Shown piece by piece: positions 25,949-37,927 of a DNA stretch of 64,000 bases. Position 1 is the stretch's first letter. Each line of letters opens with the position of its first letter. Under the pieces are notes generated by a model. The model was not told where the DNA came from, made no database searches, and was given only the letters and a program-made list of their open reading frames with translations. This stretch comes from Escherichia coli (GTDB lineage Bacteria > Pseudomonadota > Gammaproteobacteria > Enterobacterales > Enterobacteriaceae): the NCBI RefSeq assembly GCF_051903065.1, contig NZ_CP178438.1. One strand, written 5' to 3'. Made by a program: the position numbers and the translations under genes.

Positions 25949-27232
25949 TTACTTCTTCGCCTCTGCAACCACTTTGCTACCCACGCCGCGATTATTGTAT
26001 TCCCACATGCGGTTGTAGTTAGTGTCATTCAGATTGCGCTGTATTTCGTCGCTATCGTCAACGCTGCCGGTATTACCCGCAAATGGACGATTGGAAATCA
26101 CCGCATCGCCCCACGGTTTAACCGTGTTAAAACCTTCGTTGATGGCGCTATCACGGATCACCACCTGACCGTTGGTATTGGCATCAACATCCAGCGAGCG
26201 GCCCAGTTGTGCCACGCCATCACCGGAAGCATTGAAACGGCTGTTTACGGCGAGGAAACCGTAATAGATGTTGGACAGCGTAGCCGGTGCAAACACATAC
26301 GCTTCTTGCTGAGTACGTGAGTTCACCACGCGGAATTCGGTGTTATCGAACACCACTGCGCCGCGACCAGAAACGATATCCACATCCCCTTCAATATAGC
26401 TGTTGGTCACCAGCGTACGCGGCTGACGGTTGGTTTCCAGACGGTTCTGCACACCGCTGTTGGTGACAAAGAAGGTGTTCTGACGACCGAGAATGTTAAC
26501 GTTGTTAATCTGTACCTGGTCACCGTCAGTACGCAGTGCCACCGCCGGATGGTTACCTGCATCTACGCTATCGCCCAGCGTGTTTTCGATGGTCAGATTT
26601 TGCAGTTGCAGGCCATTGTTTTGTGACCAGAAGACCGCAGAACACAGAACACCGATACTGTCGCTGCGTTTGCTCTGGCAGCTATCGTACATATACCACG
26701 CTGGTTTACCTGGCATATATTTGCCGCGCGGGTTGACGTCGTGACGCCAGTCGGCAGGGCTCATGCCACCATCAAGGGAAAGCCCAATCTTCACATCAAT
26801 CGGTTTTTCACCTGTACCGTACAGAGTAATTCCACCCGGGGCGGCAGGGACATACACCGTTCCCTGATACTCACCAGGCATCACGGCAATATACTGGCGC
26901 TTGTTGGTACGCTTGATAATTGCCGCATCTACCGCCGCCTGAATCGTGGTATGCGTTACACCTTGAGTACCCGCCGGGCCGACAACAAAGTCAGGTTGTG
27001 TAGGCAGGGTAATCGGGGAAGGATTCCACGCTGCAGCACCTGGTGTCAGGGATGCAAAATAGTGTTGAGCATCGAAATTCTGCGCTTCTTTTGCCGACAG
27101 AATCGGGCGAGAAGAGGTACCAGGCGCAGTTTGATCAGAAGGACGTTGATCGGGTGGTGTTGAGCTACAGGCGGTCAGCGTCACGCCAAAAGCCAATGCC
27201 AGCGCCAGACGGGAAACTGAAAATGTGTTCAC
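25949..27232 (-). CDS. ybhC: Outer-membrane lipoprotein YbhC (pectinesterase-like fold)
   Basis: 427-aa ORF with lipoprotein signal (LTAC); last backbone gene on the gal side of attλ. Confidence 0.9.
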   Translation of the reverse strand: MNTFSVSRLALALAFGVTLTACSSTPPDQRPSDQTAPGTSSRPILSAKEAQNFDAQHYFASLTPGAAAWNPSPITLPTQPDFVVGPAGTQGVTHTTIQAAVDAAIIKRTNKRQYIAVMPGEYQGTVYVPAAPGGITLYGTGEKPIDVKIGLSLDGGMSPADWRHDVNPRGKYMPGKPAWYMYDSCQSKRSDSIGVLCSAVFWSQNNGLQLQNLTIENTLGDSVDAGNHPAVALRTDGDQVQINNVNILGRQNTFFVTNSGVQNRLETNRQPRTLVTNSYIEGDVDIVSGRGAVVFDNTEFRVVNSRTQQEAYVFAPATLSNIYYGFLAVNSRFNASGDGVAQLGRSLDVDANTNGQVVIRDSAINEGFNTVKPWGDAVISNRPFAGNTGSVDDSDEIQRNLNDTNYNRMWEYNNRGVGSKVVAEAKK

Positions 27233-27267
27233 AGGTTGCTCCGGGCTATGAAATAGAAAAATGAATC

Positions 27268-27366
27268 CGTTGAAGCCTGCTTTTTTATACTAAGTTGGCC
27301 TTATAAAAAAGCATTGCTTATCAATTTGTTGCAACGAACAGGTCACTATCAGTCAAAATAAAATCA
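27268..27366. other. attL (B-O-P'): core plus lambda P' arm
   Basis: GTTGAAGCCTGCTTTTTTATACTAAGTTGGCCTTATAAAAAAGCATTGCTTATCAATTTGTTGCAACGAACAGGTCACTATCAGTCAAAATAAAATCATTATTTG matches the lambda attP P' arm as recalled, with about one mismatch. Confidence 0.9.
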
Positions 27367-28137
27367 TTATTTGATTTCAATTTTGTCCCACTCCCTGCCT
27401 CTGTCATCGCGATACTGTGATGCCATGGTGTCCGACTTATGCCCGAGAAGATGTTGAGCAAACTTATCGCTTATCTGCTTCTCATAGAGTCTTGCAGACA
27501 AACTGCGCAACTCGTGAAAGGTAGGCGGATCCCCTTCGAAGGAAAGACCTGATGCTTTTCGTGCGCGCATAAAATACCTTGATACTGTGCCGGATGAAAG
27601 CGGTTCACGACGGGTAGATGCAATTATGGTTTCTCCGCCAAGAATCTCTTTGCATTTATTAAGTGTTTCCTTCATTGATATCCCGAGAGCATCAACATGC
27701 AATGTTGTAGGGATGGCAATTTTTACGCCTGTTTTGCTTTGCTCGACATAAATATATCCATCTACGATATCAGACCACTTCATTTCGCATAAATCACCAA
27801 CTCGCTGCCCGGTAACAACAGCCAGTTCCATTGCAAGTCTGAGCCAACATGGTGATGATTCTGCTGCTTGATAAATTTTCAGGTATTCATCAGCCGTAAG
27901 TCTTGATCTCCTTACCTCTGATTTTGCTGCGCGAGTGGCAGCGACCGGGTTTGTTGTTGCATGGCCTTCAGCTAATGCCTCTCGGAATGCATCGCTCAGT
28001 GTTGATCTGATTAACTTGGCTGATGCCGCCTTGCCCTCGTCTATGTATCCATTGAGCATTGCCGCAATTTCTTTTGTGGTGATGTCTTCAAGTGGAACAT
28101 CAGGTAGCCCCCTCCTTATTGCTTTAATTTTGCTCAT
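27367..28137 (-). pseudogene. int: Lambda-type integrase Int, 5'-truncated (C-terminal about 255 codons only)
   Basis: Translation MSKIKAIRRGLPD...HLLGHKSDTMASQYRDDRGREWDKIEIK matches lambda Int from about residue 101 to the C-terminus; homology ends at 28137 where the IS left end begins. Confidence 0.9.
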
Positions 28138-29340
28138 GTGTATTAGTCGCGACTTGATCTGACACTGAGCCTTGAAAGGTTGAGAGTTACCGGTTTTGAT
28201 ATGGGTGTCGAATCCTTATACAAAACACGAGGTAACTCTCATGCTTCATACTAACAATCCCGTCATCAAACACAAAGCCGGTTTGCTCAATCTGGCTGAA
28301 GAACTCCGCAATGTTTCGAAGGCCTGCAAAATCATGGGCGTCTCGCGTGATACGTTTTACCGTTATCGCGAACTGGCTGATGAAGGTGGGGTGGATGCAC
28401 TGATTAACCGCACTCGACGAACGCCCAATCTAAAAAATCGTACCGATGATGCAACTGAGCGGGCCGTTGTTGATTATGCCATCGCGTACCCTGCGCATGG
28501 CCAGCACCGGACCAGCAATGAGCTACGTAAGCAAGGTGTCTTCATCTCAGGAAGGGGTGTACGTTCTGTCTGGCTGCGGCATAACCTTGAGAACTTCAAA
28601 AAGCGGCTGAAAGCACTGGAGGAAAAAGTAGCCCGTGACGGTATCGAGCTGACAGAAGCACAGATAGTCGTTCTGGAGCGTAAAGCCAGCGATGACGAAG
28701 CGTGTGGTGAAATCGAAACCGCACATCCCGGTTATCTGGGCTCTCAGGATACGTTCTACGTGGGTAATCTGAAAGGAGTCGGACGCATTTATCAGCAAAC
28801 GTTCGTTGACACCTACTCGAAGGTCGCACACTGTAAACTGTATGTAACCAAAACACCGATCACGGCTGCTGACCTGCTGAATGATCGTGTGTTGCCATTT
28901 TACGAATCGCAAAACCTGCCAATGCTGAGAATACTGACCGACAGAGGAACAGAGTACTGCGGTAAGGTGGAACAGCATGACTACCAGCTATATCTGGCAA
29001 TAAATGATATAGACCACACGAAAACTAAAGCGATGTCACCGCAGACAAATGGCATCTGCGAGCGGTTCCATAAGACGATACTGAACGAATTTTATCAGGT
29101 GACGTTCCGTAAAAAGTTGTATGGAGCTCTCGATACATTGCAATCGGATCTTGATGAGTGGCTGGCTCACTATAATAATGAACGAACCCATCAGGGAAAA
29201 ATGCGCAATGGGCGGACGCCAATGGAAACGTTACTTGATGGAAAGCGCATCTGGGCCGAGAAAAATTTAAGCCGGATGTAATCTGACAGATACCTGTATA
29301 AATAACCGGTAACTGTCAGATCAGGTCTGAGCTAATACAC
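28138..29340 (+). mobile_element. IS element, about 1.2 kb, IS481-like (single-ORF DDE transposase, TGT...ACA termini)
   Basis: Imperfect terminal inverted repeats (left TGTATTAG..TTGATCTGACA, right TGTCAGATCAGGTCTGAGCTAATACACA) flank one transposase ORF; family is my inference. Confidence 0.7.
28241..29281 (+). CDS. DDE transposase (integrase-core type) of the IS element
   Basis: 346 aa from ATG at 28241 (track ORF starts at an upstream TTG); N-terminal HTH and DDE-type core region. Confidence 0.75.
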   Translation: MLHTNNPVIKHKAGLLNLAEELRNVSKACKIMGVSRDTFYRYRELADEGGVDALINRTRRTPNLKNRTDDATERAVVDYAIAYPAHGQHRTSNELRKQGVFISGRGVRSVWLRHNLENFKKRLKALEEKVARDGIELTEAQIVVLERKASDDEACGEIETAHPGYLGSQDTFYVGNLKGVGRIYQQTFVDTYSKVAHCKLYVTKTPITAADLLNDRVLPFYESQNLPMLRILTDRGTEYCGKVEQHDYQLYLAINDIDHTKTKAMSPQTNGICERFHKTILNEFYQVTFRKKLYGALDTLQSDLDEWLAHYNNERTHQGKMRNGRTPMETLLDGKRIWAEKNLSRM

Positions 29341-30238
29341 ATTTGTAGGCCTCGATACATCAGGGACTCCAAATTACGTTATAGATAACAACAGCAAACC
29401 AGCCCAGCGCAATACGATCATCGGTCTCTATGGCGAAATTAACGGGAACGGGATGGTAAGGGGGCCTTGGACAATTCTTGGTGCCAGAGCGCAATATAGT
29501 AGCTGGGTATCAACCATTGACCATATGTCACACCTAATCGGCACCGATGCTACAGCAGGTAACCAGGGGGGGGATACCTTAAGCGCATCAGTAAACAACC
29601 TCTGCCCATCTGGCGACTGGTCATTACTTGATGGTGTTCTTGGCGCTCCAATTGACTATCAGCTACAAGTAGTACCAGCAGAGGCATTGGTTAAAACTGA
29701 TGTAATTGAGCCTTCTGGTGTTGGAAGAGCATTTGGTGTGAATGCTGCAAGCGCCCAATGCAAGATAGTGGTTAACCTGACCAGAGCTAACACAGATTTT
29801 ATCAGGGGAGCATTCTATTGGTGGGGCGATGCTCCATTACAGATCGCATTGGAGACACAAGATAATTCAAATCAGATTTTCTTTCAGCCAGACAAATACT
29901 TTGGCATGAACCATGGAGGCTGGAGGCTTTACAGAATATCTGCCCCTACAAACGACTGGACCAAGGCATACCGTTTGGCAATCACGATATCATCTGGGAA
30001 GTCAGGATTCATAGGTGGTTCAATTTTTAGTTGTTATCAGGCCTCCCTTCTCCCTACTTTTTGTGGATGGAGGCATGTAAAAGTTCTGTCATCGGGTAAG
30101 CCAACAATCACTAACACTTCAGGTTTCGTAAATGGCATCCAGGCACACAGAACCTCTGTGCCATCATACCCAGGGGACCCTACGGTAATGTGGGTATGGA
30201 ACGGAACCACTTGGCTTACAGTGAATGCTTCTGCATAA
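29336..30238 (+). pseudogene. Phage tail-fibre or tailspike gene, 3' fragment only
   Basis: Reading frame opens exactly at the IS right end (29336) and runs to 30238; Gly/Ser/Thr/Trp-rich; sits upstream of gtrCBA as a tailspike does in P22-like phages; assignment is positional and compositional. Confidence 0.5.
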
Positions 30239-30265
30239 AAAAGGGTGGCCTAGCCACCATCTATG

Positions 30266-31873
30266 CTAAATACTTATTTTAACATCTGTATATCTTTCTT
30301 GACCTTTAAATAAACCGAATTCGATCCATTCGATATCACCTTTATCAATGTTTGCCCCTGTTAAAAAACCACCGTCAAAGTTCATTGAGTCAGGGTAGAA
30401 ATCGAAATTTTGTACCTTATCTTTCCCTTTGTATTTGACGTGTAGAAAAATCTTCAGAGCACCATCTTTTGGCAAGGTAATATTTCTGTTAGTCTCGAAT
30501 GCAATACGCCCATCATTTGTAATATAAACGTTCTTAACATCCGCTTGGCGTGGAATTATGTTTTTGTTTACGACCATCTTTTTTCCGCTGAATACAATCG
30601 AGTAGTCCAGTTTCGCCATATTCCTTTCAATTGAAAGCACCCCATAGTACTTTCCATAAGACCACTTGTTATGGTAAGGATCAAACTTGTCTCCACTCTT
30701 GGCAAGTTTAGAAAAATAGAAATCAGGTATTCTCAACTCCCTTTTCCCTTGCGAGATTTGCTTGTCGATTAAATACTTTCTAACCTCTGATTGATGGAAA
30801 GTTTCTTTGTAAGATTCATACATCCAAAGGTATTGAGGTATAAAATACAATATAACCAAAGCAAATAATGAGCATGTCAAATATTTTTGAGTTAAAGTGA
30901 AAAAAGAATCCTTTAATAAAAAAGATACAGCAATCAAAACAAGAATCAAAGTGCCATTTGCAGCCCTGGGAGGATAGGAAGGTGCTGCAAACATAATTAA
31001 GGATGTGGATAATGCTGCAAATAAGAATATCAATGCTAATGTTGTTGATTTCTTATCTGTCTTTTCGCGCAAGAGATTTATTAATGCGATAATTGTGAAA
31101 GCCAGAAATAAAGGCCACATGATGGAAATGACATCGGGCATCCTGGAGTATAAATGCTCAACTAGCCTTTCAATTAAAGGTTTAGAGTACCAGGCGCTAA
31201 AAGATTTGGCTCTTTCATAATTTCCTGGAGCGGCAATTAAGGCGATGAATCCCGCTAAAGATAATAAGGTATAGATAAGCCCTCTATGGCGTAAAGACCT
31301 AATTATATACGCATTATATAAATAATAAATGCCAGAGAGAATAACAACTACCGCGCCAGTATTTTCGTTTGAGCACCCCGCCATCACTGCGAGAATGGAG
31401 GTTAAATAGATGTTATATCTTTTTATTACGCACAATAAGTATGCGCAAATGAACATGTTTGTCCAAAGGTAATTTGCTGAACCAACAATCCAGAAAGTGG
31501 TTTGCCCTAAATTTGTATTGCTTACCCAGTAAAGCATAAAAATAGTTAATATTTTTATGCAATCGAATTTATTTATCTCTCCTGCTGAAGAACCAATAAG
31601 AAATATTAAATAAACACTTGAAGTCAATGCTAGTGAATTTGCTATTGCTCTATAAAATTCAGGAATGGAAAGCATCGCTGTGCTGGCATAATCAGCCACT
31701 ATTCTGCCACTCCAGCTCTCATAGTGCTTTAAGTGCTCAGAAATACTTAATCCCTTTAACGCGTAAAGATAATCATCTGAATGCATGGGTGTATGCATGC
31801 AAATGCTAAGAGTAATAAAAAATATTACTAACAAAGATAATGTATGTAAAAAATAACTATTTATTCTAGGCAT
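30266..31873 (-). CDS. GtrC-like serotype-specific O-antigen glucosyltransferase (polytopic membrane N-domain plus soluble C-domain)
   Basis: 535-aa ORF, about 10 predicted TM segments then a roughly 200-aa hydrophilic domain; AT-rich; downstream of gtrB with 1-bp overlap. Confidence 0.65.
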   Translation of the reverse strand: MPRINSYFLHTLSLLVIFFITLSICMHTPMHSDDYLYALKGLSISEHLKHYESWSGRIVADYASTAMLSIPEFYRAIANSLALTSSVYLIFLIGSSAGEINKFDCIKILTIFMLYWVSNTNLGQTTFWIVGSANYLWTNMFICAYLLCVIKRYNIYLTSILAVMAGCSNENTGAVVVILSGIYYLYNAYIIRSLRHRGLIYTLLSLAGFIALIAAPGNYERAKSFSAWYSKPLIERLVEHLYSRMPDVISIMWPLFLAFTIIALINLLREKTDKKSTTLALIFLFAALSTSLIMFAAPSYPPRAANGTLILVLIAVSFLLKDSFFTLTQKYLTCSLFALVILYFIPQYLWMYESYKETFHQSEVRKYLIDKQISQGKRELRIPDFYFSKLAKSGDKFDPYHNKWSYGKYYGVLSIERNMAKLDYSIVFSGKKMVVNKNIIPRQADVKNVYITNDGRIAFETNRNITLPKDGALKIFLHVKYKGKDKVQNFDFYPDSMNFDGGFLTGANIDKGDIEWIEFGLFKGQERYTDVKISI

Positions 31874-32790
31874 TACTTATTATCCTTCAAAATATAACGA
31901 GGACGCTGCTTAACCTCGACATAAATTCTTCCTATATATTCACCCAGGACACCGATTCCGATCAACTGGATGCCTCCAAGAAACAGGGTAGAAACCAGTA
32001 AAGATGGATACCCACGCACGGCGTTACCGAATGCAATCGTGTCAAATATCATCCAAGCACCATAAAGAAAGGCAGCACCGGCAACGAACAGGCCAATGTA
32101 AGTCCACATGCGCAGCGGAAAGGTAGAGAAGCTGGTGATCCCCTCAAGGGCAAGGTTCCAGAGTTTCCAACCGTTGAACTTCGTGCTGCCAGCTACGCGT
32201 TCTGCGCGCGCATATTCAACCACATCAGTGCGTCCGCCAACCCAGCTCAATACGCCCTTCATGAACAGGTTGCGTTCTGGCATGAGCTTAATGTTTTCCA
32301 CTACTTCGCGAGACATGAGCCGGAAGTCGCCGACATTCTCTTCTATCTGAGGGTTGCTGATTTTGTTGTGAAGTTTATAGAACCACTCAGCAGATTTACG
32401 CTTCAGCCGGCTGTCAGTGGAGCGGTCAGATCGCTTAGCCAGCACCATATCAGCCCCGGCCTGCCACTTCTCGATGAGGTGAGGAATGACCTCAATCGGG
32501 TCCTGAAGGTCAACATCAATCGGGATAACCGCCTCACCAGTTGCGTGGTCAAGCCCTGCGAACAGTGCGGGCTCTTTACCGAAATTACGGGTGAAGGAAA
32601 GAGGAACGACAAGCGGATCAGCCACAGCAAGCGCGTTTATAATTGATTCTGTCGCGTCTTTGCTGCCGTCATTTATGAAGACTATCTCGACTTCATGCTG
32701 CTGAAGCCCTTCAAATTCCCGAACAGTTTTATAAAAAATAGGTATCGCGTCTTCTTCGTTAAAGACGGGAACGACCAGAGAAATTTTCAT
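31873..32790 (-). CDS. gtrB: Bactoprenol glucosyltransferase GtrB (GT2 family)
   Basis: 305-aa ORF starting [13 protein letters not shown] with DxD-type region and two C-terminal TM helices. Confidence 0.9.
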
Positions 32791-33149
32791 TTCGCATCCC
32801 TAAAGACAATGAACTTTGAATAAATAAAACCGCACACCAGACTGATGGCGGAGAAGGTGATAAGAGTGATAATTGGAGGAAGCGAGCACTTATCAGCAGC
32901 CCATCCAACAGTAGCACTCAGTGTTCCCATGAACCCGACATATAACATGTAGCGCATCGTTGTAGTCGATGCTTTGAATGTGAATTTTGCATTCGCGAAG
33001 AAGCTAAAGCTCACAGCCACAACGAAACCTGCGAAGTTTGCCAGAGCCTGATTGGTATGCGCGGCATAGATACATACACCAAAAACCACCCAGTGTATAA
33101 GTGTGTTCAGCACACCAATCGAGGTGTACTTTGCAAATAGCTTTAACAT
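32787..33149 (-). CDS. gtrA: GtrA flippase-like small membrane protein
   Basis: 120-aa four-TM ORF directly upstream of gtrB with 4-bp overlap. Confidence 0.85.
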
Positions 33150-33454
33150 TTCTTCTATCAGCTAATAATCAAAGGCATGAAGTCTATCATCCAAGTCTCA
33201 ATCGATCGATGACTTGCTGTGGTTGATGAGACAAAACTGATGCACACAAAGATTTGCACTGGATTGCAAGGCTTTGTGCTCTTCGATAGTTGTTAAGGTG
33301 GATCACTCCGGCTTTTCATCAATCCAGTCCGCCCACCACTGCATCATCTCCCTGCGCTTATCGAGATACTGAGCATGGTTGTAAATTCAACTAACCCAGT
33401 GCATTGACAAAAAATTAGTGCAAGAAGACAAAAATCACCTTGCGCTAATGCTCT

Positions 33455-33625
33455 GTCTCAGGTCACTAATGCTATCTAAGTAGTTGATTCATAGTGACTG
33501 GATATGTTGTGTTTTGTAGCATTACGCAGTCTATTTATTAGACTAAAGATATTGTAATGCATTGATATTAATGGTTTTTAATGTTTCACGTTCAGCTTTT
33601 TTATACTAACTTGAGCGAAACGGGA
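33455..33625. other. attR (P-O-B'): diverged P arm, core, chromosomal B' arm
   Basis: P-arm-like sequence (...CAGGTCACTAATGCTATCTAAGTAGTTGATTCATAGTGACTGGATATGTTGTG...) roughly 80% similar to lambda P arm by eye; core at 33595-33609; then CTTGAGCGAAACGGG. Confidence 0.8.
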
Positions 33626-33699
33626 AGGTAAAAAGACAAAAAGTTGTTTTTAATACCTTTAAGTGATACCAGATAGCATTGCGCCATCTGGCAGAGTAA

Positions 33700-34176
33700 T
33701 TAACTAAACATCGCGGTAATCGATGCGCTTGCCAGAGAGTGGAAATGAACGTTAAACCCGACCATCGCGCCGCTGGCTCCTTCATCGACATCAATACGCT
33801 CTACATCCAGCGCGTGAACGGTAAAAATGTAGCGATGGGTTTCGCCTTTCGGCGGCGCTGCGCCATCGTATCCGGTTTTACCAAAATCGGTACGCGTCTG
33901 CAAAACGCCGTCTGGCATTGCTACCAGACCAGAGCCAAACCCTTGCGGTAATACGCGGGTATCAGCGGGTAAATTAACAACTACCCAGTGCCACTAGCCG
34001 GAGCCGGTTGGCGCATCCGGGTCGTAGCAGGTGACGACAAAACTTTTCGTTCCCGCAGGAACATCATCCCACGCCAGATGCGGTGAAATATTATCGCCAT
34101 CGTAACCCATGCCGTTAAAGACATGACGATGTGGCAACTTATCGCCATCGCGCAGATCATTACTGATGAGTTTCAT
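33700..34176 (-). pseudogene. ybhB: ybhB (PEBP/RKIP-family protein) with in-frame amber stop
   Basis: Track ORFs 33994-34176 and 33700-33918 are one frame split by TAG at 33994-33996, where I recall Trp in K-12 YbhB; downstream sequence WHWVVVNLPADTRVLPQGFGSGLVAMPDG... stays in frame. Confidence 0.85.
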
Positions 34177-34284: not shown

Positions 34285-35401
34285 ATGAAACGCGCATATA
34301 AATACCGGTTTTACCCGACAACTGAGCAGGCTGAGCTTTTAGCTCAGACGTTCGGCTGTGTGCGCTTCGTCTACAATTCCATCCTTCGTTGGCGTACCGA
34401 TGCGTACTACGAGCGAAAGGAAAAGATCGGTTATCTACAGGCCAACGCTCGCCTTACGGCGCTCAAAAAAGAGCCTGAATACATATGGCTGAATGTCCCC
34501 TCCAGCAGTCGTTGCGCCACCAACAAGCCGCCTTTGCTAACTTCTTTGCCGGACGAGCTGCATATCCGGCTTTCAAAAGCAAACGGCACAAACAGGTGGC
34601 TGAGTTCACTGCCAGCGCGTTTAAACACCGTGACGGCGAGTTGTATATAGCAAAAGCAAGTCGCCTCTGGATGTTCGCTGGAGTCGAGAATTACCCTCTG
34701 CGCCGTCAACCGTTACCATTTCCAGAGATAGCGCTGGCAGGTACTTTGTTTCCTGCCTGTGTGAGTTTGAACCTGTATCAATGCCTGTTACCGCTAAAAC
34801 GGTCGGCATTGATGTGGGCTTAAAAGATTTATTCGTTACCGATACCGGATTCAAAACCGACAATCCCCGCCACACCGCTAAATATGCGAAGCGATTAACG
34901 CTGCTACAGCGATGTTTAAGCAGGAAGCAAAAAGGCTCAAGAAACCGTATTAAAGCCCGCTTAAAGGTCGCCCGACTCCACGCGAAAATCGCCGATTGCC
35001 GGATGGACAATCTACACAAGTTGTCCCGCAAACTGATTAACGAAAACCAAGTTGTTTGCGTCGAATCCCTCAAGGTGAAAAACATGATCCGCAACCCGAA
35101 GCTGTCTAAAGCAATAGCTGACGCAGGCTGGAGCGAACTTGTTCGCCAGCTCCAGTACAAAGGCAAATGGGCCGAGCGGTCAGTGGTCGCCATTGACCAG
35201 TATTTACCGTCCTCAAAATGCTGTAGTTGCTGCGGTTTCACCATGCAAAAAATGCCTCTTAATGTTCGTAAATGGCACTGCCCTGAATGCGGCGCAGACC
35301 ATGATCGCGACATTAACGCGGCACGTAATATTAAAGCTGCCGGGCTGGCAGTGTTAGCCCACGGAGAGCCTGTAAACCCTGAATCGCAGCACGCGGCTTA
35401 G
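34285..35401 (+). pseudogene. tnpB: IS200/IS605-family tnpB (RNA-guided nuclease family), two frameshifts
   Basis: N-terminus MKRAYKYRFYPTTEQAELLAQTFGCVRFVYN; middle and C-terminal parts (VTISRDSAGRYFVSCLCEF, GIDVGLKDLF, CxxC...CxxC zinc finger) lie in two other frames; no tnpA nearby. Confidence 0.85.
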
Positions 35402-35511: not shown

Positions 35512-36801
35512 TTATTGGCAAAAAAATGTTTCATCCTGCACCGCACGGTTAACCGCTGCGGTCAGACGCTGCAACTGTTGCGGGAGAATAATATAGGGCG
35601 GCATCAGGTAAATCAGCTTGCCAAAAGGCCGGATCCAGACACCCTGTTCGACAAAGAATTTTTGCAGCGCCGCCATATTCACCGGACGAGTTGTTTCGAC
35701 TACGCCGATTGCCCCCAGCACGCGCACATCGGCAACCATTTCGGCATCACGGGCGGGGGCAAGTTGCTCGCGCAGCTGTACTTCAATAGCCGCCACCTGT
35801 TGCTGCCAGTCGCCAGATTCGAGAATCGCCAGGCTGGCGTTAGCTGCCGCGCAGGCCAGCGGATTACCCATAAAAGTTGGCCCGTGCATAAAGCAGCCGG
35901 CTTCGCCGTTACTGATGGTTTCTGCAACCTCGCGCGTGGTGAGTGTGGCGGAAAGGGTCATTGTGCCGCCGGTTAAGGCTTTACCGAGGCACAAAATGTC
36001 CGGCGCGATTTCTGCATGTTCACAGGCAAACAGTTTGCCGGTACGACCAAATCCGGTGGCGATCTCGTCGGCAATCAGCAAGATACCTTCGCGATCGCAC
36101 ATTTTGCGGATTCGTTTTAACCATTGCGGATGGTACATGCGCATCCCGCCTGCGCCCTGGACAATCGGCTCAATGATCACCGCCGCGATTTCATGACGAT
36201 GCGCCGCCATCAGGCGGGCAAAGCCCACCATATCGCGCTCATCCCATTCACCATCCATGCGGCTTTGCGGGGCGGGAGCAAACAAGTTTTCTGGCAGATA
36301 GCCTTTCCACAGGCTGTGCATTGAGTTGTCCGGATCGCACACCGACATCGCGCCAAAGGTATCGCCATGATAACCATTGCGGAAGGTCAGAAAACGCTGG
36401 CGCGCTTCGCCTTTGGCTTGCCAGTACTGCAACGCCATTTTCATCGCCACTTCCACCGCTACGGAACCGGAGTCCGCGAGAAAAACGCACTCCAGCGGTT
36501 GCGGCGTCATCGCCACCAGTTTGCGGCACAGCTCAATGGCTGGCGCATGAGTGATACCGCCAAACATCACATGCGACATGGCATCAATTTGCGTCTTCAT
36601 CGCCACATTAAGCTGCGGGTGATTGTAGCCGTGGATCGCCGCCCACCAGGACGACATACCGTCAACCAGGCGTCTGCCGTCAGACAAAATTAGCTCGCAA
36701 CCTTCGGCGCTTGCCACCGGATAAACCGGTAGCGGGGAGGTCATGGATGTGTATGGGTGCCAGATATGGCGTTGGTCAAAGGCAAGATCGTCCGTTGTCA
36801 T
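35512..36801 (-). CDS. bioA: Adenosylmethionine-8-amino-7-oxononanoate aminotransferase BioA
   Basis: 429 aa from [17 protein letters not shown]. Confidence 0.95.
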
Positions 36802-36808
36802 AATCGAC

Positions 36809-36843
36809 TTGTAAACCAAATTGAAAAGATTTAGGTTTACAAG
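36809..36843. promoter_or_regulatory. bio operator (BirA site) in the divergent bioA/bioBFCD promoter
   Basis: TTGTAAACCAAATTGAAAAGATTTAGGTTTACAAG imperfect palindrome between bioA and bioB. Confidence 0.85.
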
Positions 36844-36886
36844 TCTACACCGAATTAACAACAAAAAACACGTTTGGAGAAGCCCC

Positions 36887-37927
36887 ATGGCTCACCGCCC
36901 ACGCTGGACATTGTCGCAAGTCACAGAATTATTTGAAAAACCGTTGCTGGATCTGCTGTTTGAAGCGCAGCAGGTGCATCGCCAGCATTTCGATCCTCGT
37001 CAGGTGCAGGTCAGCACGTTGCTGTCGATTAAGACCGGAGCTTGTCCGGAAGATTGCAAATACTGCCCGCAAAGCTCGCGCTACAAAACCGGGCTGGAAG
37101 CCGAGCGGTTGATGGAAGTTGAACAGGTGCTGGAGTCGGCGCGCAAAGCGAAAGCTGCGGGATCGACGCGTTTCTGTATGGGCGCGGCGTGGAAGAATCC
37201 CCACGAACGCGATATGCCGTACCTGGAACAAATGGTGCAGGGGGTAAAAGCGATGGGACTGGAGGCGTGTATGACGCTGGGTACGTTGAGTGAATCTCAG
37301 GCGCAGCGCCTTGCGAATGCCGGGCTGGATTACTACAACCACAACCTCGACACCTCGCCGGAGTTTTACGGCAATATCATCACCACACGCACTTATCAGG
37401 AACGCCTCGATACGCTGGAAAAAGTGCGCGATGCCGGGATCAAAGTCTGCTCAGGTGGCATTGTGGGCTTAGGCGAAACGGTAAAAGATCGCGCCGGATT
37501 ATTGCTGCAACTGGCAAACCTGCCGACGCCGCCGGAAAGCGTGCCAATCAACATGCTGGTGAAGGTGAAAGGCACGCCGCTTGCCGATAACGATGACGTT
37601 GATGCCTTTGATTTTATTCGCACCATTGCGGTCGCGCGGATCATGATGCCGACCTCTTACGTGCGCCTTTCTGCCGGACGCGAGCAGATGAACGAACAGA
37701 CTCAGGCGATGTGCTTTATGGCAGGCGCAAACTCGATTTTCTACGGTTGCAAACTGCTGACCACGCCGAATCCGGAAGAAGATAAAGACCTGCAACTGTT
37801 CCGCAAACTGGGGCTAAATCCGCAGCAAACTGCCGTGCTGGCGGGCGATAACGAACAACAGCAGCGTCTGGAACAGGCACTGATGACCCCGGACACTGAC
37901 GAATATTACAACGCGGCAGCACTATGA
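36887..37927 (+). CDS. bioB: Biotin synthase BioB (radical SAM)
   Basis: 346 aa from [12 protein letters not shown]; CxxxCxxC motif (CPEDCKYC). Confidence 0.95.

Follow-up and report, generated by a model that had tools for sequence, protein, structure and literature searches.

A probable O-antigen glucosylation operon with a PF19528-type GtrC in a prophage remnant at the lambda attachment site of Escherichia coli

We analyzed a 64,000-nucleotide stretch of an Escherichia coli genome (contig NZ_CP178438.1 of assembly GCF_051903065.1), hereafter the window, and characterized three coupled genes at positions 30266 to 33149 on its minus strand. The locus had been singled out in an earlier reading of the same letters (the original prediction). 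Our analysis supports it, at the level of sequence, as a gtrA-gtrB-gtrC O-antigen glucosylation module, and we consider it likely that this is a functional-looking three-component operon for O-antigen glucosylation, that is, for lysogenic conversion. The module is best explained as left behind at the lambda attachment site by a temperate phage of mosaic make-up.

Gene content and coupling of the operon

The three genes, in order of transcription, are as follows.

32787-33149, minus strand: gtrA, 120 amino acids (aa), a small membrane protein and proposed flippase for undecaprenyl phosphate-linked glucose (Und-P-glucose)
31873-32790, minus strand: gtrB, 305 aa, a GT2 undecaprenyl-phosphate glucosyltransferase
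30266-31873, minus strand: gtrC, 535 aa, a PF19528 (DUF6056 / GT_STM0557_N) transferase of GT-C fold, the specificity component

In the list of open reading frames (ORFs), gtrA and gtrB overlap by 4 bp (32787-32790) and gtrB and gtrC by 1 bp (base 31873), and no internal stop interrupts any of the three, just as the original prediction had described them. Its description of the operon as gtrA-gtrB-gtrC-like was borne out by matches of the first two products to PF04138 and PF00535 and by the GT-C fold of the third. The position of gtrC is also that seen in gtr operons: it is the third gene and coupled to gtrB, with a phage attachment (att) core 445 nt upstream of gtrA and a convergent tailspike fragment.

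GtrA matched PF04138 (GtrA_DPMS_TM; E = 7.9 × 10−14, residues 7-116) and the GtrA-like PHROG (E = 8.5 × 10−71), and was 97%, 92% and 60% identical to the GtrA proteins of phages Hf4s, SfV and epsilon34, respectively. GtrB matched PF00535 (E = 1.4 × 10−29) and the GtrB PHROG (E = 1 × 10−177), with identities of 94% to Hf4s, 88% to SfV and 87% to epsilon34. No NCBIfam model matched GtrC or GtrA, and the hits of GtrB to the PgfS and ArnC models fell short of the cutoffs, so NCBIfam offered no equivalog name. Because GtrB sets the sugar and this GtrB is nearly identical to glucose-specific enzymes, the transferred sugar is expected to be glucose.

Family, fold and topology of GtrC

To place the specificity component, we compared GtrC with family models and with characterized proteins. 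In Pfam it matched only PF19528 (E = 3 × 10−66, model positions 9-438 of 442), a family that hmmscan labels DUF6056 and precomputed tables label GT_STM0557_N. PGAP already labels gtrC as DUF6056, and a literature search for that name returned merely an incidental mention. BLASTP, the check that had been proposed for this protein, showed it to be GtrC-like: it aligned with epsilon34 GtrC at 31% identity over residues 10-531 (full length, including the C-terminal domain; E = 8 × 10−77) and with Hf4s GtrC at 30% identity over residues 8-412 (E = 9 × 10−44), and it was 34% identical to the product of a chromosomal gene of Salmonella Infantis. We also considered the Shigella-type GtrC (PF14264, Glucos_trans_II) and rejected it, as PF14264 gave no match and BLASTP at E ≤ 10 aligned GtrC with neither GtrV nor GtrII. 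PF14264 did match a positive control, the alternative gtrC of the E. coli O38 strain 33F4, with an E value of 5.5 × 10−24. The original prediction had been unable to assign the 535-aa protein to a known serotype enzyme; its family has now been found, and we classify GtrC by sequence as an enzyme of the epsilon34/STM0557 type (PF19528, which also includes Hf4s) and not of the Shigella GtrII/GtrV type.

The AlphaFold2 model of GtrC, computed with a 47-sequence alignment, had a mean predicted local distance difference test (pLDDT) score of 94.3 and a predicted template modeling (pTM) score of 0.92. The original prediction hinged on this protein having a GT-C or GtrC-like fold and membrane topology, and the model contains both a GT-C transmembrane core and a polytopic arrangement. 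A search of the PDB sequences with a PF19528-family profile returned nothing at E ≤ 1, which suggests that the family is without a solved structure. With membrane helices taken from the model, GtrC is predicted to have 11 transmembrane (TM) segments with its N-terminus inside and its C-terminus outside, and lysine and arginine make up 11 of 40 residues in the short cytoplasmic loops versus 1 of 21 in the periplasmic ones. A crude 19-residue hydropathy scan, by comparison, gave too few TM helices and an inconsistent topology, and was set aside in favor of the helices of the model.

Residues D33, D34, R57, N169, E170, R221 and R303 were invariant across 47 homologs, and all of them fall in predicted periplasmic loops. 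The D33-D34 pair lies in the loop that follows TM1 (residues 26-71), the first loop of the protein and predicted to be periplasmic. The first extracytoplasmic loop is the hallmark position of the catalytic acid in GT-C enzymes, and we infer from the model that D33-D34 may play this role. The last ~155 residues (~379-535) form a periplasmic beta-sandwich domain in the model and match an unannotated PHROG; our guess is that this domain could serve as an acceptor-recognition module.

Host O-antigen and other gtr modules in O38 genomes

The original prediction expected an effect on the cell surface if the host makes O-antigen. The host does appear to make it, as an intact-looking O38 cluster is present in complete genomes that carry the same locus. 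The stretch from 27200 to 33700 (6.5 kb) was essentially identical (≤1 base different) in three complete E. coli chromosomes, where it also lies between ybhC and ybhB. One of these carriers, strain 23CRST027, has an uninterrupted galF-gnd cluster whose Wzx and Wzy belong to the O38 family. Among 5426 complete genomes, the O38 wzy was present in 12, and all 3 carriers of the PF19528 gtrC were among those 12. The host O-antigen is most likely O38, and the three carriers are probably one clone.

Other O38 genomes carry other versions of the module. Gene pair gtrAB together with an unrelated PF14264 gtrC was found at att-lambda in 6 of the 12, in another remnant ridden with insertion sequences (ISs) (33F4 gtrC, L008:7609-9003), and in 2 of the 12 (DAM and ANT) a P22-like prophage at argW carries gtrABC with yet another gtrC (DAM, L024:4592-6004). 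In NCTC9038, the reference strain for O38, the att-lambda site is empty (L013:19229-21140). Both att-lambda gtrC alleles, PF19528 and PF14264, occurred only in O38 genomes among the 5426. In Salmonella, the GtrC repertoire tracks the O-antigen substrate (PMC3688519); the O38-restricted gtrC types fit this rule, which suggests that there are unrecognized O38 variants. It is possible, though we put it at somewhat under an even chance, that O38 is a hidden multi-variant serogroup like S. flexneri or O17/O44/O73/O77/O106, that the operon defines an undescribed glucosylated subtype within it and that the C-terminal beta-sandwich reads the acceptor.

Each carrier genome (NZ_AP045789.1, NZ_AP045800.1 and NZ_CP083585.1) also has a second place matching gtrAB DNA. 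We looked for it at argW in strain 23CRST027, where it was absent and a heavily IS-degraded island was present instead. A second supply of GtrA and GtrB would matter for the design of a deletion experiment.

Upstream region and terminator

We examined the regions flanking the operon for signals that could govern its expression. Over 110 nt, the region upstream of gtrA aligns with its counterparts in SfII, SfV, Hf4s and epsilon34 and with the promoter-proximal part of the P22-like region. The promoter was assigned by this homology only, as a generic sigma-70 scan did not call it, and the terminator came from a consensus scan.

33181-33209, minus strand: predicted gtr promoter, with −35 TCGATC (33209-33204), a 17-nt spacer and −10 TAGACT (33186-33181)
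30244-30258, minus strand: terminator-like GC hairpin and T run, 8 nt past the gtrC stop (GGTGGCTAGGCCACC followed by CTTTTTTATG)

Relative to the gtrA ATG, GATC occurs only at −58 and −155, and the −58 copy, the sole proximal one, is inside the −35 element. The corresponding sites in the P22-like SPN9CC are at −135, −122, −71 and −58. Phase variation by Dam and OxyR, the mode of control in P22 and in most gtr operons of Salmonella, was rejected, as the four-GATC module (two OxyR half-site pairs, within ~130 nt upstream of the transcription start) is absent upstream of gtrA. Judging from this upstream region, expression of the operon is likely to be constitutive.

The surrounding prophage remnant

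The operon lies in a 6.3-kb remnant at the lambda attachment site of the E. coli chromosome, with ybhC on one side and ybhB on the other, and two perfect lambda att cores flank this remnant. From ybhC, the order is integrase fragment, IS481 transposase, tailspike fragment, terminator, gtrC-gtrB-gtrA, promoter block, integrase relic, att arm and att core. The features besides those listed above are as follows.

27279-27293, plus strand: att core on the gal/ybhC side, exact GCTTTTTTATACTAA
27367-28137, minus strand: truncated lambda-type tyrosine integrase, N-terminal 100 residues gone
28196-29281, plus strand: IS481-family transposase gene between the integrase and tailspike fragments (PGAP coding sequence start at 28241)
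29336-30238, plus strand: C-terminal fragment of a P22-like tailspike (the receptor-binding part), convergent with gtrC
33303-33386, minus strand: relic of a second, Hf4s-type integrase, C-terminus only (27 codons), a PGAP pseudogene
33595-33609, plus strand: att core on the bio/ybhB side, exact GCTTTTTTATACTAA

The two exact copies of the att core in the window compare with ~0.13 expected by chance, and the ~216-nt arm beside the bio/ybhB-side core is 85% identical to the matching arm of the strain 33F4 remnant at the same site. The integrase fragment is 98% identical to the strain 33F4 integrase (357 aa), with which it aligns over residues 101-357; PHROG integrase families match it as well, and PGAP labels it "missing N-terminus." The transposase matched the NCBIfam model NF033577 (transpos_IS481) with an E value of 4.9 × 10−83, over the curated cutoff.

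The tailspike fragment is carried by a 261-aa ORF (29453-30238) whose frame is open upstream only to ~29336. This ORF had no match in Pfam, NCBIfam or PHROGs and was identified through the neighbor of the Morganella ortholog of gtrC: the fragment corresponds to residues 343-641 (299 residues) of the 641-aa Tail_spike_N protein beside the Morganella prophage gtrC, at 82% identity. The head-binding half, its first ~342 residues, is gone. The original prediction was right that the phage genes around the operon are broken, with 100 residues missing from the integrase, ~342 from the tailspike and an IS481-family element between them.

The 27-codon relic translates as IYNHAQYLDKRREMMQWWADWIDEKPE, which aligned with the C-terminus of Hf4s Int, IYNHAQYLDKRREMMQWWADWLDEKVE, each followed by a stop. 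The presence of an Hf4s-type integrase relic just upstream of the gtrA promoter shows that the segment with gtrAB originated in a phage of the order int-attP-gtrABC and was later recombined into a lambda-att phage.

We made several side observations on the bio side of the remnant. ybhB (33700-34176) is a pseudogene in two ORF pieces, labeled "internal stop" by PGAP; it is intact (158 aa) in other assemblies with the identical gtr remnant, so its inactivation is later than the decay of the prophage. A frameshifted IS200/IS605-type TnpB (InsQ) gene lies between ybhB and bioA (34285-35401) and is also frameshifted in the O38 strain 33F4. The longest bioA ORF (35512-36888, 458 aa) begins upstream of the annotated 429-aa bioA, and the added N-terminal codons are probably untranslated.

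Relatives and mobility of gtrC

Homologs of PF19528 are widespread in Enterobacterales, and all 120 homologs among the matches listed carry the PF19528 domain. Every enterobacterial homolog that we inspected follows gtrA and gtrB in a prophage, namely in Morganella, Salmonella Senftenberg and Enterobacter hormaechei. The Morganella ortholog lies in a P22-like prophage with an intact tailspike gene and that of Salmonella Senftenberg within a cluster of tail and baseplate genes. Beside a homolog in Lachnospiraceae there is a GT2 gene, and no gene of the GtrA family was called in the vicinity.

The exact 535-aa GtrC was found on at least 99 E. coli contigs, and a 98.3% identical copy is present in E. 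hormaechei (L021:10001-11608). Between E. coli and E. hormaechei, synonymous divergence (dS) was 0.02 for gtrC, >3 for gtrA, 0.27 for gtrB and 1.7 for the tailspike fragment. As gtrC is near-identical across the two species but its flanks are far more diverged, we conclude that gtrC moved recently as a cassette. The GC content of gtrC (34-38%) is low relative to that of gtrB (~52%), which fits a separate origin of gtrC. Compared with its 73%-identical Morganella ortholog, gtrC has a ratio of nonsynonymous to synonymous divergence (dN/dS) of 0.07. In E. hormaechei, too, the tailspike position is occupied by a short ORF (286 aa; L020/L021:11636-12496), and the prophage around it, an unusual one, has a T7-like terminase together with a family-A DNA polymerase.

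Comparison with characterized gtr systems

The gtrABC operon of phage epsilon34 is alike in its gene order, in its 4-bp and 1-bp overlaps, in the terminator that follows gtrC and in its convergent tailspike gene; its annotated rho-independent terminator is at the matching position. Its upstream region likewise has a single proximal GATC and no Dam/OxyR module, a signature also reported absent for family VIII. The two differ in the sequences of GtrC (31% identity) and GtrA (60%), in host O-antigen (Salmonella group E versus E. coli O38) and in setting, as epsilon34 is a phage with a P22-type integrase and an argU site, and here a remnant with a lambda-type integrase fragment occupies lambda attB. 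Phage epsilon34 converts O:3,15 to O:3,15,34. It adds glucose (Glc) 1→4 to galactose (Gal). The GtrC of epsilon34 is classed in family VIII and STM0557 in family III, which forms Glc 1→4 Gal (PMC3688519), and epsilon34 GtrC (gp20) is 30-40% identical to STM0557/STY0605 (PMC2629481).

The order int, att, gtrA-B-C, terminator and convergent tailspike is common to epsilon34, Hf4s and the locus studied here. Hf4s has the closer GtrA (97%) and GtrB (94%) and a near-identical region upstream of gtrA, and the Hf4s-type integrase relic lies next to that region in the window. Its GtrC is also of PF19528 (30% identity over residues 8-412) but is 410 aa long and without the ~155-residue C-terminal beta-sandwich, and its host, E. 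coli 4s, has another O-antigen. By nuclear magnetic resonance, an Hf4s lysogen gained one Glc at O-4 of N-acetylgalactosamine (GalNAc), and Hf4s adsorption was lost (10.1101/2021.06.09.447823). The lipopolysaccharide (LPS) ladder of that lysogen did not visibly shift.

The Salmonella SPI-16 operon (STM0557-0559; family III, O:12-2) is similarly a chromosomal prophage-remnant operon kept in its host, and STM0557 is the namesake of PF19528; our GtrC is tied to it through PF19528 and epsilon34 GtrC, not by direct alignment. The SPI-16 operon is phase-variable via four GATC sites and OxyR (PMC2909390, PMC3688519), a signature that the locus in the window lacks. The S. flexneri phages SfI, SfII, SfIV, SfV and SfX share the pathway logic, GtrA and GtrB proteins 88-92% identical to ours (SfV) and the location of gtr beside attP and tail genes. 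In contrast, their specificity enzymes (GtrI, II, IV, V and X; PF14264) come from a sequence family other than PF19528.

Proposed pathway and alternative explanations

The steps of the GtrB-GtrA-GtrC pathway are established for Gtr systems. In this operon, GtrB would transfer glucose from uridine diphosphate glucose (UDP-glucose) onto undecaprenyl phosphate on the cytoplasmic side of the inner membrane, GtrA would move Und-P-glucose to the periplasmic face and GtrC, with the acidic D33-D34 motif in its first periplasmic loop, would attach the glucose, in the periplasm, to a single defined sugar of the O-unit. On O38, the predicted site is O-4 of a galactose-configured residue (Gal or GalNAc), because PF19528 relatives place glucose at position 4 of such a sugar; we hold this linkage with low confidence. 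The outcome would be a changed O-epitope, and O38-specific phages, among them the donor phage of the adjoining tailspike, would be kept from adsorbing.

Several points weigh against this proposal. The operon is known here from sequence alone, and its closest characterized GtrC relatives are ~30% identical, so that acceptor and linkage are not confidently transferable. The O-antigen cluster lies outside the window, and the assignment to O38 was made via the three complete genomes with a near-identical 6.5-kb locus (≤1 base), not via the sequenced strain. We did not find the repeat-unit structure of O38 or S. dysenteriae 8 in the literature, including the text of a review of E. coli O-antigens, so a free O-4 on Gal or GalNAc stays an assumption. 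Finally, O-antigen glucosylation has been tested in relatives, the Salmonella gtr families I, III, V, VI and VIII, and intact operons are not always active: families II and IV gave no visible shift in LPS, and family VI gave one only when constitutively expressed (PMC3688519).

The original prediction took an intact operon amid broken phage genes to suggest selection for its retention. The operon is indeed intact, but selection follows from this only weakly. At least 7 assemblies contain copies of the remnant, with differences of 0-2 single-nucleotide polymorphisms (SNPs) over up to 6.5 kb, and 23 of 23 contigs read have the same context around it, which points to a young remnant in one clonal lineage. 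There was too little time for decay by point mutation, so that intactness is a weak argument for selection. These observations also favor a reading in which the operon is an inert passenger, intact only through recent IS-mediated reduction, and either silent or equipped with a GtrC without an acceptor, so that no LPS phenotype would result. The high AT content of gtrC agrees with such a reading, as AT-rich composition is often silenced by H-NS in E. coli, and so does the behavior of Salmonella families II, IV and VI described above. We nevertheless consider it unlikely. Deletions and an IS insertion took nearly the whole prophage, yet gtrABC, the promoter block and the terminator were spared. 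The dN/dS of gtrC relative to its Morganella ortholog indicates purifying selection, and the adjoining tailspike fragment implies that the donor phage recognized the surface glycan of this host. A better hint of selection than intactness is that different gtr modules have survived in parallel elsewhere among the O38 genomes: the PF14264 gtrC, O38-only like the PF19528 one, persists at the same att site in another IS-ridden remnant, and two more O38 genomes have a further module at argW, on the P22-like prophage.

An acceptor other than O-antigen, such as enterobacterial common antigen, LPS core, colanic acid or a protein, is far less probable still. The sequence itself names no acceptor and the C-terminal beta-sandwich is without an assigned function, both of which would leave room for one. 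However, all characterized PF19528 relatives (epsilon34, STM0557 and Hf4s) modify O-antigen, gtrC is strictly tied to one O serogroup in complete genomes and it travels beside an O-antigen-type tailspike. O-antigen glucosylation, with O38 as the probable substrate, is the reading that we prefer.

Implications

The locus is an ordinary lysogenic-conversion module whose family, fold and pathway are already known, and it brings no new mechanism. It is modestly interesting for its acceptor and linkage, for the role of the C-terminal domain and for the several alternative GtrC types within O38. If the operon is active, it would alter both the O38 antigen, which is immunodominant, and the receptor that O-antigen-specific phages use, and this would bear on serotyping, on in-silico O-typing that uses wzx and wzy only and on the prediction of phage host range. 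Cross-reactions of O38 with Shigella dysenteriae 8 are documented (PMC8795385). If O38 is in fact a multi-variant serogroup, there would be a glucosylated O38 subtype with its own antigenic and phage-receptor properties. Three gtrC genes on one O-antigen backbone, together with a reference strain whose att-lambda site is empty, offer a natural test set for the acceptor specificity of PF19528 GtrC proteins.

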